This document shows positions 49,694 through 56,505 of a DNA stretch of 64,000 bases, in pieces (the stretch's first letter is position 1; every line of letters starts with the position of its first letter). The notes beneath the pieces were generated by a model that saw only the letters and a program-made list of their open reading frames with translations, did no database searches and was not told the DNA's origin. A program made the translations under genes and the position numbers. The stretch spans positions 74,931-138,930 of the forward strand of contig JAYQOO010000001.1 of assembly GCA_038144855.1 (NCBI GenBank), given 5' to 3'. This DNA is from Acidimicrobiia bacterium. GTDB taxonomy: Bacteria > Acidobacteriota > Vicinamibacteria > Vicinamibacterales > UBA2999.

Positions 49694-50374
49694 ATGGAGT
49701 TGGTCGGAGCGCCCGTCGCCGAGCTGAGGTCGCTGTTGTCGGCATCGTTCGAAGATTGGTCGAACTCGAGCGACAAGCGCCAATCATGTGGATTGTTGGG
49801 TGGTGCTACCGCGCTGATCTTCCTCGGGGCCCTTCGCCAGGCGCAAGTTGACTGGCGCCAGATTACGCTGTTCTGGGTCGACGAACGAGCGGTCTCACCT
49901 GAAGATCCAGAATCCAATTTCGGCGTCGCGGAACGCATGCTGCTCCAGCCCCTTGGCGCCAAGGCGCCGACCGCGATCCGGATGGCGACCGACAAGATGC
50001 CCCTCGGCCAGGCCGCGCTCTGGTACGACGATGCGCTTGCGACGTACCTGCACAATGGACCGCTTGATCTTGCGTTGCTCGGTGTTGGAGAAGACGGGCA
50101 CATCTGTTCGCTGTTCCCGGGCCACCGGGCGTTGATGTACGACGACTTGAGGGTCGTGGCGATTGAAGACGCGCCCAAGCCGGAGGCGAGGCGCCTGTCG
50201 TTGTCTTTGAGGTTCGTGACGCAGACCAAGAAGATCTGGTTGATCGCGCTCGGCCCGCGCAAGCTGCCCGTCCTGCAGGCGGCGATCAAGAAGACCAGCA
50301 ACGCCACGCCGCTGGATCTTCTCCTCCGTCAAGCGAAGGACGTCACCGTGTTTACGGATCAGGCCATCAGGTAG
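49694..50374 (+). CDS. pgl: 6-phosphogluconolactonase
   Basis: FWVDERAV...ESNF, DLALLGVGEDGHICSLFPG, RLSLSL. Confidence 0.88.
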   Translation: MELVGAPVAELRSLLSASFEDWSNSSDKRQSCGLLGGATALIFLGALRQAQVDWRQITLFWVDERAVSPEDPESNFGVAERMLLQPLGAKAPTAIRMATDKMPLGQAALWYDDALATYLHNGPLDLALLGVGEDGHICSLFPGHRALMYDDLRVVAIEDAPKPEARRLSLSLRFVTQTKKIWLIALGPRKLPVLQAAIKKTSNATPLDLLLRQAKDVTVFTDQAIR

Positions 50375-51803
50375 CCAGGCGTTTCAGCTTCTCCACCAGG
50401 GTCGTTCGCTTGAGGCCCAGCAGCCGCGCGGCGGCACCCTTGTTTTGTTCGGTGCGCGCCAGCGCGCGCTCGATCATGTCCCTTTCGATCTGCGCGACCA
50501 GCCCGGGAAGGTCAAGCCCATCGGGCGGCAGGTCGAGGGTCGGCTTGACGCTTGCCGCCCCGGTGGCCTGGACGTCGGCCGGAAGATCGGCGACTTCGAT
50601 CTGCGTGCGGCTGCCGATCATCGCCAGAGCGCGCTCCATCGCGTTTTCGAGTTGCCGCACGTTGCCGGGCCACGCAAACGCCATCAAGTGCCGCATCGCG
50701 TCCTGGGCCACGGTCACCGCAACCACGTCCTTGTCGAGCCCGGACTCCTTGTCAATCCGGCGGTACTTCTTGATGAACGAATTCACCAGCAGCGGAATGT
50801 CTTCGACACGCTCTCTGAGCGGTGCGAGCTGAACCGGGATCACGTTCAATCGGTAGTAAAGATCCTCCCTGAACGTTCCGTCCTTCACCATTTTCCAGAG
50901 ATCAGCGTTCGTCGCGGCCACCACGCGCACGTCGACCTTGATGGTGTGCGTATCACCAAGGCGCTCGAACTCGCGTTCCTGCAGGACGCGCAGCATCTTC
51001 ATCTGCAAGGCCATCGGCATCGTTCCGACTTCGTCAAGGAACAGCGTGCCGCCATCCGCCTGCTCAAGCCGTCCCTGGCGCATGGCCACTGCGCCGGTGA
51101 AGGCGCCACGCGCGTGGCCGAAGAGTTCAGCATCGAGCAGCGTTTCGGGAATGGCGCTGACGTTGATGGCCACGAACCGGCCGCGATGGCGGGGGCTGGT
51201 CTGGTGGATCGCGCGGGCCACCATTTCCTTGCCGGTGCCGGTCTCCCCGGTGATCAGGATCGTGGCCGGTGCCGGGGCCACGGTTTCAATCAACTGGAAC
51301 AACGCGCGCATCGGCGCGCTCTTGCCAACCATCGACCCGAGACCGAACCGCTCGTCAAGCTGTTGATGCAGATATGCGTTCTCACTCTGCAGGCGCCGCT
51401 GTTCCAGTGCCTTGGTGAGCACGTGCATCAACTCATCGAATTGGAAGGGCTTGGCGATGAAGTCAGCGGCGCCAAGTTTCATCATGCCGACGGCATCCTT
51501 CACCGTGCCGTAGCCGGTCACGACGATTGCGACAATGCCGGGATAGCGTTCGAGTGCCGCCTCGATGACGCCTCGGCCCTCTTCGGCCAGGGCGACCGAC
51601 TCGCCTGAGGATTCACTCTGTGCGCCGGTGACGCGGGGAAGACGCAGGTCGGAAATGATGACATCGAAGGCAAAGCCGTCGAGTGCCTTGCGAGCTGACT
51701 CGGCATCTGCCGCCTGCGTGACGTTGAAGCCGGCGTCGACGAGGCGCTCCGCCACGACGCTACGGAGCGCTTCTTCATCGTCGACAAGGAGAATGTGGGT
51801 CAC
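50367..51803 (-). CDS. Sigma54-dependent two-component activator (REC + AAA+ + HTH)
   Basis: ILLVDDE...IISDLRLP; ITGETGTGKE, ELFGHARGAFTGA, LFLDEV, FREDLYYRLNV, WPGNVRQLEN, AARLLGLKRTTL. Start taken at GTG 51803. Confidence 0.95.
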   Translation of the reverse strand: MTHILLVDDEEALRSVVAERLVDAGFNVTQAADAESARKALDGFAFDVIISDLRLPRVTGAQSESSGESVALAEEGRGVIEAALERYPGIVAIVVTGYGTVKDAVGMMKLGAADFIAKPFQFDELMHVLTKALEQRRLQSENAYLHQQLDERFGLGSMVGKSAPMRALFQLIETVAPAPATILITGETGTGKEMVARAIHQTSPRHRGRFVAINVSAIPETLLDAELFGHARGAFTGAVAMRQGRLEQADGGTLFLDEVGTMPMALQMKMLRVLQEREFERLGDTHTIKVDVRVVAATNADLWKMVKDGTFREDLYYRLNVIPVQLAPLRERVEDIPLLVNSFIKKYRRIDKESGLDKDVVAVTVAQDAMRHLMAFAWPGNVRQLENAMERALAMIGSRTQIEVADLPADVQATGAASVKPTLDLPPDGLDLPGLVAQIERDMIERALARTEQNKGAAARLLGLKRTTLVEKLKRLAT

Positions 51804-51845
51804 GTTATTTGGCTCAATCTGTGAAAACAGGCCAATATCTGCGAA

Positions 51846-51861
51846 TGTCAAAGTATTGACA
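51846..51861. promoter_or_regulatory. Dyad TGTCAA-AGTA-TTGACA overlapping a likely sigma70 promoter of the activator gene
   Basis: Perfect 6-bp inverted repeat; minus strand has TTGACA (51880-51875)-17-AATACT (51857-51852). Confidence 0.65.
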
Positions 51862-51940
51862 GTGTGCTCACGGCTGTCAAGACCTGCATGGCTAATCCCA
51901 AAAAGGCAGGCACCGATACAACCTCTGGAGGCAAACCCCA

Positions 51941-52164: not shown

Positions 52165-52356
52165 ATGCACACCAACTCGAAAGAGCTGCTGCACAAGCTC
52201 AATAATCAACTCGGCGTGATACTTGCACACGCCGAGTTGCTCGAGACCAAGGCGCAGGACGCGTCGCAGAAGTCGCGCGCGTCCCTGGTCGTCAACGCCG
52301 CACTGCAGGCGATGGCCGTGTCGCGCGAACTGCGCGAAACTGTCGGCGAGAAGTAG
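52165..52356 (+). CDS. Stand-alone HisKA/DHp-like protein (63 aa)
   Basis: ELLHKLNNQLGVILAHAELL, an H-box pattern with no ATPase domain. Confidence 0.75.
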   Translation: MHTNSKELLHKLNNQLGVILAHAELLETKAQDASQKSRASLVVNAALQAMAVSRELRETVGEK

Positions 52357-52479
52357 CTAGGCCCTCAGGCCTGCGGCCGACGGTCCTCGCGGCCACTGCT
52401 TTCCCATCCCACCTCAAATTTCTGGCGGATTCTCGGTCTGATCACCGATCTGTGAGTGTCTGTTCAAGAACGGAATATA

Positions 52480-52673
52480 CGTCAAAAAAATGGCAACACT
52501 CCCGAAAAAAGCGTCAAAACATTGTTAGTAAAAACTTGATCCTGAGACGCCGTTGCCCACGTGCTTGGATGCGCAGCAGCGTATAAACACAGCTAAATCA
52601 AGCGCTTACATCGACAAGATTGCTTCGCTGCACACTCTTGACCACGGTTATACGGCCTTGGCACTCTGGTTGC
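52480..52673 (+). promoter_or_regulatory. Sigma54 promoter with two enhancer-like sites and an IHF site
   Basis: CGTCAAAAAAATGGCA 52480-52495, CGTCAAAACATTGTTA 52512-52527, IHF-consensus AATCAAGCGCTTA 52596-52608, TGGCAC-TCTGG-TTGC 52659-52673. Confidence 0.8.
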
Positions 52674-52688
52674 GTTAGGGCAGGCAAC

Positions 52689-53765
52689 ATGAAAACCGAA
52701 ACTGTCCTGAAGGCCGACGCGAGCCCCGCTAGCCGCGTGGAAACCGGTCTACCGTTCGTGGAGGCGCTCGCCCGCCGCATGGCCGCGACCATGCCGCATT
52801 CGATCGACCTGAGCGACCTGGTGCAGGACGGTGTCATCGGCTTGATCGACGCCGCGCATCGTTTTGACGATTCGAGGGGGATCAAGTTCGAGACCTTCGC
52901 CGAGCGGCGGATTCGTGGCGCCATGATCGACGCGCTGCGCAAGGATGCGTGGCCACGCGGCGTGCGACGCGTTCGGCGCGAGCTTGAGGCCGCGCGCGAG
53001 AAGCTGCGCGCGACCCTCGGGCACGAGCCCTCGCTGGCAGACCTCGCTGAAGCCATTGGCTCTGATGAGAAGCGGCTGGGCAAGACGATCGTGCGCATCA
53101 ACACGATCGAATCGACGTCGCCGTTCTCGAGCGCCGAAAGCGTTGATGAATCACAGTTGCCGGCCGTGCTGGTGCCGGCGGAGCCGGAGCGTCCCGACAC
53201 GCAGTACGAGCGCGACGAGGTCAAGAACCGCGTGCGCAACGCGATTGCGACGTTGCCGGTGCGCGAGCAGAAGGTGATCGCGCTCTACTACTACCGCGAA
53301 GTCACGATGAAAGACATCGGCGCCGAGCTTGGCGTCAACGAATCACGCGTTTCGCAGTTGCATGCGCGCGCAATTCGCCGCCTGCGCGAGGCGCTCGGCG
53401 CAGACGTCACGCCGATGGCGGCGTCGGAGGCGTTGCGTGACGCGATCGCGATGATGGAGGCCAAGCCGCGCATGGCCAAGGCATCCATTCCAATGCCCGA
53501 GTCCGATACGCGCGTCTCACTCGCCGCGCAGAAGCGAGCGGGTCTCGTGCTGGTAAAGGCGGGAAGCCGCGAGACCAACGCCGAACAGGATCAGGTGAGC
53601 GTGTCCCTAGCCGCACGCAGCAAGTCTCCCAACCTGAAAGGCTTGGAGAGCCAGCGGCAGCCCGTCTCTTCGAGGAAGCGTTCGGCGTCCGTGCCGGCGA
53701 CATCGCCGGTGACGAATATGACGCGTCGCGCCAGGGCGGGCGTCGCGGCCGCCATCGCGCGGTAG
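52689..53765 (+). CDS. FliA/WhiG (sigma28)-family RNA polymerase sigma factor
   Basis: DLSDLVQDGVIGLIDAA.RFD..RGIKFETFAERRIRGAMIDALR, MKDIGAELGVNESRVSQLH. Start ATG 52689 or GTG 52737; the 3' end overlaps the convergent kinase. Confidence 0.9.
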   Translation: MKTETVLKADASPASRVETGLPFVEALARRMAATMPHSIDLSDLVQDGVIGLIDAAHRFDDSRGIKFETFAERRIRGAMIDALRKDAWPRGVRRVRRELEAAREKLRATLGHEPSLADLAEAIGSDEKRLGKTIVRINTIESTSPFSSAESVDESQLPAVLVPAEPERPDTQYERDEVKNRVRNAIATLPVREQKVIALYYYREVTMKDIGAELGVNESRVSQLHARAIRRLREALGADVTPMAASEALRDAIAMMEAKPRMAKASIPMPESDTRVSLAAQKRAGLVLVKAGSRETNAEQDQVSVSLAARSKSPNLKGLESQRQPVSSRKRSASVPATSPVTNMTRRARAGVAAAIAR

Positions 53766-55135
53766 AACTGCATGCCGTCAATACGCGGCATCTTGAGATC
53801 GCACACGATCAAGTCGTAACGCTGCTCGGTGAGGCGGGTGAGCCCCTCCTCACCGTCGCCGGCCCGGTCGACCGCAAAGCCCGCATCGCCGAGCGCTTCG
53901 GATACCGCGACGGCGAGCGCGGGCTCATCCTCCACCACCAGCACGCGCAATCCCTTGAAGGCTTCGAGCGAGATCGGTTGCTGCGGCACGCGCGCCGGCG
54001 GCGTATTCAAGTGCTGCCCGGTGACCGGCAGCTCGATGAAAAAGCTCGCACCTGATCGGCCGCCGTCTGCCTGCACTGATTTCGACTCGAGCCAGATGCG
54101 TCCGCCGTGCTCCTGCACGATGGCGTACGCGACCGTCAGTCCGAGCCCCGTGCCCTGGCCGACCTCCTTCGTCGTGAAGAACGGATCGAACACCTTGCCA
54201 ACACGGTCCTCCGGAATCCCCGGCCCGTCGTCACTGACTTCGAGGACCGCGGAACCACGATCGCGGTCGTGCGTGGTGCGCACGACGATCGTGCCCTTCC
54301 CGTTGGCGCCAATGCAGGCCTGCTCGGCGTTGATCAACAGATTCAGCAAGACCTGCTTGATCTGGTGGCCATCGGCAAACACTTCCGGTAAGCCAGTGGT
54401 CAGGGCTTCGACAACATGAATGTTGGAGACCTTCTGCTCATACGCACGGAGAGCGAGCGTCTCGCGCACCACCTGGTTCAGATCCACCATCGCGCGCGTG
54501 GTCTGTCGTTTGCGCGCGAAGGTCAGGAGATTGCGGACGATCCGCGCGGCGCGCTCTGACTCGGCGAGGATGACTTCCAGTCCCTGCCTGGTCTTGTCAT
54601 CGACGTTGCGCTCCGCAAGACGTTCGGCCCACGACAGGATCGTCGCGAGCGGATTGTTCAGCTCGTGCGCAACGCCCGAGATCGTCTGGCCGAGGGCCGC
54701 CATTTTTTCGGCCTGCAACATCTGGTAGCGGCCATCGCGGGTCTGATCCTCACGCTTCTTGCGTTCGGAGACGTCGCGGACGAGCGCCGTGATCTGAAGT
54801 GCCTGCACCTCCGCCTCGTAGCCAGCTGAGGCAGTCACCTCAACCCAGATCGGCACGTTGTCCACGCGCCGCAGTCGGATCAGGTAATCCTGGACGCCGC
54901 CTTCGCGGTCCAGGAGCTCAATGAACGTTTGCCGTGCCTGCGGATCAACGAATCGGGATGGTTCGAACGGTTGCACGACGCTTTCGGCAGCGTCAGGGGC
55001 GTAACCAAAGATCTGCTTGAGGTGCGGATTCGCCGACAGCGTGGAAGATGAATTCGCCGCGAGCGTGCCAAGGTAAACACCCTCGCGGACGGACTCAAAG
55101 AGGCGTTCGACGAACGTTCGACGGTCGTTCGACAT
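53591..55135 (-). CDS. Hybrid sensor histidine kinase (PAS + HisKA + HATPase + REC)
   Basis: GVAHELNNPL, QVLLNLLINA, DDGPGI, DPFFTTKEVGQGTGLGL, LVVEDE...VCDLKMP. Confidence 0.95.
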   Translation of the reverse strand: MSNDRRTFVERLFESVREGVYLGTLAANSSSTLSANPHLKQIFGYAPDAAESVVQPFEPSRFVDPQARQTFIELLDREGGVQDYLIRLRRVDNVPIWVEVTASAGYEAEVQALQITALVRDVSERKKREDQTRDGRYQMLQAEKMAALGQTISGVAHELNNPLATILSWAERLAERNVDDKTRQGLEVILAESERAARIVRNLLTFARKRQTTRAMVDLNQVVRETLALRAYEQKVSNIHVVEALTTGLPEVFADGHQIKQVLLNLLINAEQACIGANGKGTIVVRTTHDRDRGSAVLEVSDDGPGIPEDRVGKVFDPFFTTKEVGQGTGLGLTVAYAIVQEHGGRIWLESKSVQADGGRSGASFFIELPVTGQHLNTPPARVPQQPISLEAFKGLRVLVVEDEPALAVAVSEALGDAGFAVDRAGDGEEGLTRLTEQRYDLIVCDLKMPRIDGMQFYRAMAAATPALARRVIFVTGDVAGTDAERFLEETGCRWLSKPFRLGDLLRAARDTLT

Positions 55136-55914: not shown

Positions 55915-55995
55915 GTCGCGGCCGAATTTCCGACACGCGCCTAGTTCAACCTTCGCGACTCTTCGCCGATTACGAACCCAACAGGGGTTCGTAAC

Positions 55996-56505
55996 ATGCG
56001 CTCTTTCGTCTTGATTGTCGCCATTACTCTGTTAACTGCCGTTCCGTCGTTCGCGCAAACCGACGCGGTCGATCCATCCGTCCTCGGACGCGTCGATCCA
56101 GCGGGGGATGAAACTGCGAACGCCGATCGGAATCAGCCACCCCGGCGCGGAGTGTCGAAGTGGTGGTCGATCGCGATGGCTTCGGGATACATGGCCGATG
56201 GCGCCACCGCTTGGTGGGCGATGAGTCAGTCGGGGCCGGCAGCCAAGATTCGCGAGGCCAACGGCTTCTACCACAAGCTCTTCGGTCCTGACGTTAAGGG
56301 CTGGCAGGTCATGGCCTTCAAGACCGGTCAAGCTGCGGTCTTGGGATTCGGACTGCACCAGATCGCCAAGCACACCCCCGGCAAAGAACGCGTCGTCTAT
56401 GTCGCCGTGTTGCACACGGTAGTGTCCGGGGTGATCAGCACGGTCAACATCAAGCGCGGCCTGAGCGCCCGCAGGCTGAACGCCGCTTACGCGGTGCAGT
56501 GGTAG
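55996..56505 (+). CDS. Hypothetical exported/membrane protein (DUF5658-like D..T...EAN pattern)
   Basis: Signal peptide, hydrophobic helices, ADGATAWWAM...REANG. Confidence 0.55.
   Translation: MRSFVLIVAITLLTAVPSFAQTDAVDPSVLGRVDPAGDETANADRNQPPRRGVSKWWSIAMASGYMADGATAWWAMSQSGPAAKIREANGFYHKLFGPDVKGWQVMAFKTGQAAVLGFGLHQIAKHTPGKERVVYVAVLHTVVSGVISTVNIKRGLSARRLNAAYAVQW

Follow-up and report, generated by a model that had tools for sequence, protein, structure and literature searches.

A predicted sigma-54 promoter upstream of a FliA/WhiG-family sigma factor paralogue conserved across Vicinamibacterales

Background

What controls a sigma factor gene of the sigma-28 family that lies away from flagellar genes, and what does its product serve? 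This question is raised by a locus in a 64,000-nucleotide stretch of DNA (hereafter the window, contig C1:74931-138930) from a Vicinamibacterales metagenome-assembled genome of 4.25 Mb in 224 contigs, with a G+C content of 64.4%. In the window, a gene for a sigma factor of the FliA/WhiG family is preceded by an intergenic region in which an original prediction, made from the letters of the window, had read two upstream sites, a site for integration host factor (IHF) and a sigma-54 -24/-12 element. The locus occurs in DNA sequencing runs of estuarine and freshwater metagenomes. Soils and fresh waters harbour Vicinamibacterales in abundance, and gene regulation in this order is almost unstudied.

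By comparing the locus with its orthologues, we found the promoter, the upstream sites and the bend site to be conserved together with their geometry, in line with the complete sigma-54 promoter for a sigma-28-family gene that had been proposed. The presence, order, spacing and conservation of these sites, and the status of the sigma factor as a paralogue, can be read from the sequence and its comparison, and they make it quite probable that region 52480-52688 functions as a sigma-54 promoter driving a sigma-28 paralogue that is not flagellar. This would mean that a flagellar-style cascade from sigma-54 to sigma-28 has been reused for a purpose other than motility, in a lineage mostly without flagella. 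Among the papers searched, none described a FliA-type factor under sigma-54 control in Acidobacteria or Vicinamibacterales.

Materials and methods

Orthologous loci were collected by a scan with one genome per species, which gave 80 loci with 68-87% protein identity; counts out of 81 refer to these 80 loci and the window. For the promoter test, the 240 nt 5' of the sigma factor gene were searched, a match of at least 8 out of 10 with GG and GC intact being a pass, and 1851 windows from the same loci served as controls. The 22 closest intergenic regions were aligned, and all 81 sequences were also aligned without gaps, anchored on the -24. As background for motif searches, 656 kb of related loci were used. 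The order of the module genes was traced across the 80 loci by tblastn with the proteins of the window, and flagellar gene content was compared in 11 genomes, namely the window's own genome and ten relatives carrying the module. RNA for the window's organism consisted of assembled Logan contigs only.

Results

A -24/-12 element conserved 5' of the sigma factor gene

The sequence TGGCAC-N5-TTGC that had been read at 52659-52673 is present there (TGGCACTCTGGTTGC) as the sole exact occurrence in the window, and the element proved conserved in all orthologous loci: a match of at least 8 out of 10 with invariant GG and GC was found in 80/80, compared to 4% of the 1851 controls. Scores over the 80 loci were 8 in 26, 9 in 45 and 10 in 9, the commonest form being TGGCAT-N5-TTGC, with TGGTAY, or ATGC at the -12, in some clades. 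In the ungapped alignment of the 81 sequences, the -24/-12 element is by far the most informative block. Directly 5' of it lies another conserved block (52629-52655), which resembles TG(A)CAC-like words, two or three in number, repeated at intervals of about 10 bp. The plus strand of 52357-52688 was searched for a sigma-70 promoter that could serve the sigma factor gene, and none was found.

Of rpoN and ihf, whose presence the original prediction had left to be checked, the former and a gene of the IHF-beta class were found in the genome. Contig C160 carries an intact rpoN (Sigma54_DBD, 219.8 bits; a 476-aa open reading frame with region I and the RpoN box), and among three genes for proteins of the HU/IHF fold, one (contig C28) encodes a protein of the IHF-beta class, exceeding the NCBIfam IHF-beta cut-off (119.3 versus 115 bits).

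Paired dyads and a putative bend site upstream of the predicted promoter

Two related sites 32 bp apart had been predicted farther upstream. Both are present, with centres 32 bp apart, but they are palindromes of FleQ-box shape rather than direct repeats of a simple kind: each of the two CGTCAAAA words (52480 and 52512) is one half of a 14-bp dyad, for which the 22 closest intergenic regions give the consensus GYCAA-N4-TTGRC. At least one such dyad with at most one mismatch lies 5' of the sigma factor gene in 80/80 loci, while elsewhere 73 matches occur in the 656 kb (about one per 9 kb), and a pair with 31-33 bp spacing is found in 77 of the 81 loci. The centre of the proximal dyad falls between -165.5 and -170.5 in 63 loci and between -153.5 and -156.5 in 14 loci; these two distance classes differ by one helical turn, as looping on a given face of the helix predicts.

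A third, perfect dyad (GTCAAAGTATTGAC; in extended form TGTCAAAGTATTGACA, TGTCAA-N4-TTGACA) is located in the divergent region between the neighbouring activator gene and the small HTH_17 gene, where a copy occurs in 73/74 loci. It overlaps the -10 of a sigma-70-like promoter that reads into the activator gene on the minus strand (TTGACA 51880-51875, 17-nt spacer, AATACT 51857-51852). Lying at the activator's own promoter, this dyad ties the motif to the module and suggests autoregulation of the activator, likely autorepression.

Between the dyads and the -24/-12 element lies the proposed bend site, in which the exact IHF consensus had been noted at 52596-52608; indeed, AATCAAGCGCTTA matches WATCAANNNNTTR without mismatch. 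This consensus occurs three times in the window versus 0.32 times expected by chance and is thus not unique to the bend site. Across the order, the TTA of the IHF core is near-invariant and stands at a fixed ungapped distance from the -24 (81 sequences), and the full consensus with at most two mismatches is found at the anchored position in 48/81 loci. In closer relatives the block reads TAAGTG.CTGA-N4-TCAG.CACTTA, that is, two mirror-image IHF-like cores, a dyad symmetry that would fit an IHF-type protein and equally another dimer.

Predicted transcription start, start codon and leader

As in the original prediction, the sigma factor gene begins with ATG 52689, which was found 16 nt past the C of the -12 GC. 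Taking this C as -12 sets the +1 at 52685 and leaves a leader of about 4 nt. In close relatives the sequence 3' of the -12 has TTAGGGCAGGCAAC in common. ATGAARA comes immediately after this in the window and in ten close loci (CAACATGAARA is conserved in these 11 loci), and other close relatives (L009, L013-L023 and L076) have GGAG, 8-10 nt and the ATG at this point; more distant relatives have longer, unrelated leaders, likewise with a GGAG-type site. Because the other relatives possess a GGAG leader, the near-leaderless state appears to be derived and confined to one sub-clade, and on balance we rather favour a near-leaderless mRNA for the sigma factor gene in the window's sub-clade.

GTG 52737, which had been put forward as an alternative start, was rejected: relatives have GTC, GTA or GTT at this codon, and the GTG lacks a preceding ribosome-binding site. 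Since, moreover, the next Met after ATG 52689 would cut into sigma region 2, ATG 52689 is taken as the start.

A freshwater metatranscriptome contained a 270-nt contig corresponding to 52697-52966 with no mismatches, which starts 12 nt past the predicted +1; no RNA contig in that metatranscriptome crosses 52199-52696. This contig weakly fits a start near 52685.

A sigma-28-family paralogue that does not travel with flagella

The product of the gene scores 206.9 bits against TIGR02479 (FliA_WhiG; cut-off 189.6), and in Pfam its Sigma70_r2 and r4 matches are strong, with r3 at 24.8 versus 25.3. Its description as a sigma-28-family gene away from flagellar genes was borne out by this family match and by the comparison of genomes. 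In the window's own genome, searches for FlhA, rod-protein and FliG genes gave no matches. The module sigma factor was found in 11/11 genomes (201-208 bits), while flhA and flagellins are present in three of the ten relatives and neither is present in the other seven, including the closed 5.35-Mb chromosome OY970174.1. The three flagellated relatives each carry an additional, better-scoring FliA (228-236 bits) at most 2 kb from flhA. In the nearest relative, which is flagellated, this second FliA has 246 aa, lies between flhF-like and fliM-like genes, and is 41% identical to the window's protein. In the non-flagellated genomes tested, the module sigma factor is the sole member of the FliA/WhiG family. 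Since flagellated relatives have an extra fliA and non-flagellated relatives keep only the window's type, the gene is best regarded as an old paralogue whose distribution does not follow that of flagella, and by this comparison its product is a non-flagellar FliA paralogue.

In public databases the protein carries the name 'sigma factor for flagellar operon FliA', a label that is probably wrong for non-flagellated Vicinamibacterales. Database proteins of the long type (340-410 aa) number more than 6600, and those with a name bear that of 'RNA polymerase sigma factor for flagellar operon FliA'.

One flagellin gene of the own genome (C132:9335-10054, minus strand; L002) is short, a frameshift splitting its N-domain and C-domain into different frames. 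It is preceded by TCAAG-N14-TCTGATTA, one base off the T[AC]AAG-N15-16-CCGATTA found in the flagellin promoters of flagellated relatives. This split gene may be the remnant of a recent loss of flagella, or an assembly error.

The open reading frame of the sigma factor runs about 120 codons beyond region 4 and overlaps that of the convergent kinase at 53591-53765. The overlap measures 175 nt in 76/77 loci, in the phase in which both third positions coincide, and in the window sequence the sigma stop codon stands opposite the Tyr codon of FY in the QFYRAM segment of the kinase receiver. The linker before the overlap varies in length and never gains a stop or frameshift, which argues for genuine translation of the basic tail of about 58 aa. 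A Pfam scan of the tail gave no family over the cut-off.

A five-gene signalling module

In all 80 loci the order and orientation of five genes are the same: activator (minus), HTH_17 (plus), DHp-only (plus), sigma factor (plus) and hybrid kinase (minus). The activator is present in 80/80 loci, the HTH_17 gene in 77/80 and the DHp-only gene in 73/80. The translated activator shows a readable GAFTGA motif and the Walker A sequence GETGTGKE, its best NCBIfam matches being AtoC and NtrC, all under the cut-off; an insert of about 20 aa behind the DLRLP motif splits the Pfam match of its receiver into two stretches. Its true start is probably GTG 51803 (MTHILLVDDEE...) and not the listed TTG 51851; the latter lies upstream of the start predicted for the sigma-70-like promoter. 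This neighbouring NtrC-type regulator is, judging from its domains and position, a likely activator of the sigma-54 promoter.

Ten records that carry the module at 71-85% identity (L005, L007, L011, L012, L041, L054, L057, L062, L065 and L066) are titled Cyanobacteriota, Acidimicrobiia, Gemmatimonadaceae, Steroidobacter or Bifidobacteriaceae, and are probably mislabelled or chimeric metagenome bins.

A putative FliA-type promoter within the module and candidate targets

The HTH_17 and DHp-only genes are preceded by a FliA-type promoter sequence (TAATCCCAAAAAGGCAGGCACCGATA). The pattern TAA[ATG]-N15-17-CCGATA occurs 5' of HTH_17 in 69/77 loci, with a 16-nt spacer in 64, and has one other match in the 656 kb, both strands considered. 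The spacing of TAAT-N16-CCGATA is that of TAAA-N15-GCCGATAA. As the sole family member in non-flagellated genomes, the module's own sigma factor is the natural, and the probable, reader of this promoter, which suggests feedback on the module.

Searches for further targets gave the following. The pattern TAAA-N-GCCGATAA had no match in the own genome, and neither the flagellin-type -10 (CCGATTA) nor the HTH_17-type motif was enriched genome-wide over permuted controls. Inside the window, the open reading frame 55996-56505 (169 aa, signal-peptide-like N-terminus; no Pfam family over the cut-off) is preceded by TCAACCTTC..GCCGATTAC (55946-55973) and a small hairpin. L003 and L008 retain these -35 and -10 words with a different spacer between them, and they are the only such matches in the 656 kb. 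Elsewhere in the genome, CTAATCT..GCCGATAA precedes a gene for a 191-aa Pal/OmpA-like lipoprotein with a ribosome-binding site (C17:28663, minus strand), and a TAAT/TAAA-N16/17-CCGATA site precedes a gene for a 405-aa lipoprotein, also with a ribosome-binding site (C23:12486, plus strand). Both lipoprotein genes are possible targets of the sigma factor on the strength of these motifs. A metagenome scan for the Pal-like gene returned distant relatives only, none of them with the motif.

Table 1. Features of the sigma factor locus, in positions of the window
Feature	Position	Strand	Remarks
NtrC-family sigma-54 activator (REC, AAA+ with GAFTGA, Fis-type helix-turn-helix)	50367..51851	-	Pfam Sigma54_activat 1.5e-72, Response_reg, HTH_8
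Third dyad GTCAAAGTATTGAC (perfect)	51847..51860		activator/HTH divergent region
FliA-type promoter, predicted, TAATCCCAAAAAGGCAGGCACCGATA (TAAT-N16-CCGATA)	51893..51918	+	22 nt 5' of HTH_17 start
HTH_17/excisionase-family DNA-binding protein, 63 aa	51941..52132	+	most conserved module protein, 65-100% identity
DHp-only (H-box helix pair) protein, 63 aa	52165..52356	+	no Pfam match; 73/80 loci
Distal dyad GTCAAAAAAATGGC	52481..52494		1 mismatch to GYCAA-N4-TTGRC; centre about -197.5
Proximal dyad GTCAAAACATTGTT	52513..52526		2 mismatches; centre about -165.5
Bend-site block, conserved TAA ... AATCAAGCGCTTA	52584..52608	+	exact IHF consensus 52596-52608; centred near -85
Conserved block TGCAC..TTGACCA..TTATAC (TTAYACA across relatives)	52629..52655	+	about -56 to -30; abuts -24 on 5' side
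Sigma-54 -24/-12 element, predicted, TGGCACTCTGGTTGC	52659..52673	+	GG 52660-61, GC 52672-73; predicted +1 = 52685 +/- 1
FliA/WhiG-family sigma factor paralogue	52689..53765	+	358 aa, regions 2-4 and a tail of about 120 aa
Soluble hybrid histidine kinase (PAS, HisKA, HATPase, REC)	53591..55135	-	convergent with sigma factor gene; presumed module sensor

Discussion

From the sites described above we infer which protein binds which site, where transcription starts, its dependence on rpoN, and the regulon, as follows. The sigma-54 RNA polymerase would bind the -24/-12 element. An AAA+ activator, most likely the divergent NtrC-type regulator, phosphorylated via the neighbouring hybrid kinase, would occupy the two FleQ-box-like dyads near -197 and -165, and an IHF-type protein would bend the DNA near -85, so that the activator could contact and then open the closed complex. 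The resulting transcript, from about 52685, would encode the non-flagellar FliA/WhiG-family paralogue; in the window's sub-clade the ATG would follow about 4 nt past the start, and in most relatives a leader of about 18 nt with GGAG would precede it. The new sigma factor would most probably read the promoter at 51893-51918 and so feed back on the module, and transcription might run on into the sigma factor gene itself. More speculatively, the whole might form a self-contained two-sigma switch across Vicinamibacterales, in which a kinase, possibly a DHp relay, sigma-54 and sigma-28 feedback are combined with possible bistability, a sigma factor tail antisense to the kinase receiver, a near-leaderless sub-clade, and an envelope or lifestyle regulon unrelated to motility; we consider this wider picture tentative and the less probable part of the proposal.

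Several observations weigh against the proposed sigma-54 promoter or against parts of this scheme. Looking at one genome alone, the motifs could be due to chance, as counts are not above chance: promoter-like matches with one mismatch number 4 in the window versus 4.68 expected, and the exact TGGCAC-N5-TTGC occurs 6 times genome-wide, without enrichment of its correct spacer over wrong ones. Neither of the two paired dyads in the window is perfect, one having one mismatch and the other two, and the dyad symmetry of the bend block in close relatives would be unneeded for a site of the heterodimeric IHF. Leaders of 3-5 nt are poor substrates for translation in E. coli. The RNA support consists of one assembled contig at a depth of 3.2, for which DNA carry-over is possible. 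No terminator was found between the DHp-only and sigma factor genes (52357-52688), so read-through from the DHp side may also contribute to transcription of the sigma factor gene and could give positive autoregulation. The genome encodes 17 sigma-54 activators with AAA+ domains, so that the cognate one may be another than the neighbour, and the small HTH protein is an alternative candidate for binding the dyads. What makes the promoter more than chance is its conservation across the orthologous loci.

The two last-mentioned points lead to an explanation that we regard as improbable, though the least so of three: the sigma-54 promoter would be real, and its dyads would be bound by the 63-aa HTH_17 protein or by another of the 17 activators instead of the neighbour. 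Binding of the dyads is predicted from sequence, and the HTH_17 protein, the most conserved of the module, is 95-100% identical in close relatives, as expected for the reader of an invariant DNA word. Against this stand the helical phasing of paired dyads 32 bp apart at about -165 and -197, which is classic activator geometry, the identity of the dyad with the box of a known sigma-54 activator as given in PMC6120874, and the activator gene itself, which diverges from the operon in 80/80 loci and has the same dyad over its own -10.

Far less probable is it that the sigma factor gene is transcribed mainly by read-through from the HTH/DHp operon, from the FliA-type or another promoter, with TGGCAY-N5-TTGC being a site for another factor or a minor promoter, and AGGGCAGG before the ATG being a weak ribosome-binding site on an mRNA that is not leaderless. 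Next to the missing terminator, the conserved FliA-type promoter 5' of the operon and a GGGCAGG conserved immediately 5' of the ATG would agree with this. However, it is precisely the GG and GC typical of sigma-54 promoters, at exact spacing, that are invariant, the geometry of the whole enhancer and bend site is conserved too, and GGGCAGGCAAC is equally conserved in relatives with a separate GGAG farther down, so that its conservation is not that of a ribosome-binding site. The sole RNA contig, which starts past the predicted +1, none spanning the intergenic region, weakly argues in the same direction. That the gene is an ordinary flagellar fliA, and the lack of flagellar genes an artefact of an incomplete metagenome-assembled genome, deserves hardly any credence: the 224 contigs, the retained frameshifted flagellin gene, the flagellated nearest relative and the database name might all point that way, but the three flagellated relatives possess a second, better-scoring FliA beside flhA in addition to the module gene, the window's protein is only 41% identical to the flagellar-cluster FliA of its nearest relative, and seven relatives, one of them with a closed chromosome, have the module gene and lack both flhA and flagellin. 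A sigma-54 promoter driving a non-flagellar paralogue thus remains the explanation that we favour.

If so, the locus offers a regulatory circuit open to direct test, with cis-elements that can all be read and are all conserved, and its set of sites (FleQ-like box, phased pair, bend site and -24/-12 element) a clean system for the study of enhancer geometry outside Proteobacteria. Moreover, the flagellar FliA label is probably wrong for thousands of database entries and could mislead the inference of motility from metagenomes.

The arrangement resembles several known systems. At glnAp2 of enteric bacteria, the NtrC enhancer has two strong sites near -140 and -108, which are 32 bp apart. In both cases tandem dyads three helical turns apart lie 5' of a -24/-12 element, a phosphorylated REC-AAA+-HTH activator is (or, here, would be) involved, and a site for the activator, here a predicted one, also lies at its own sigma-70 promoter. 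The half-site sequence is different, however; the dyads are here farther 5' (about -165 and -197) with the bend site in between, and the product is a sigma factor and not a metabolic enzyme.

The dyad itself recalls the consensus GTCaNTAAAtTGAC proposed for FleQ of P. aeruginosa and cited in PMC6120874; FleQ is a sigma-54 activator whose HTH is likewise of the Fis type. In both cases the dyad spans 14 bp and has the form GTCA-N6-TGAC. The activator of the present module differs in having a receiver domain (NtrC type) and no FleQ N-domain, and its binding to the dyad is a prediction.

In Streptomyces, WhiG is a non-flagellar factor of the sigma-28 family and the sole family member in its genome, under the control of an anti-sigma factor armed by cyclic di-GMP and not of sigma-54 (PMC12871210). 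Like WhiG, the sigma factor described here would be a FliA/WhiG-family factor acting outside motility. It differs in that control would be at least transcriptional, via sigma-54, in its tail of about 120 aa, and in that a canonical FliA coexists with it in flagellated relatives.

In the flagellar hierarchy of Vibrio cholerae, class II expression of fliA depends on FlrA and sigma-54 (PMC6504787). There, as proposed here, a sigma-54 activator turns on a sigma-28-family gene whose product reads its own class of promoters. Both tiers are flagellar in V. cholerae, where fliA lies in a flagellar cluster, whereas in Vicinamibacterales a separate paralogue is kept in non-flagellated genomes, is embedded in a five-gene signalling module, and has as its best-supported candidate target the module itself.

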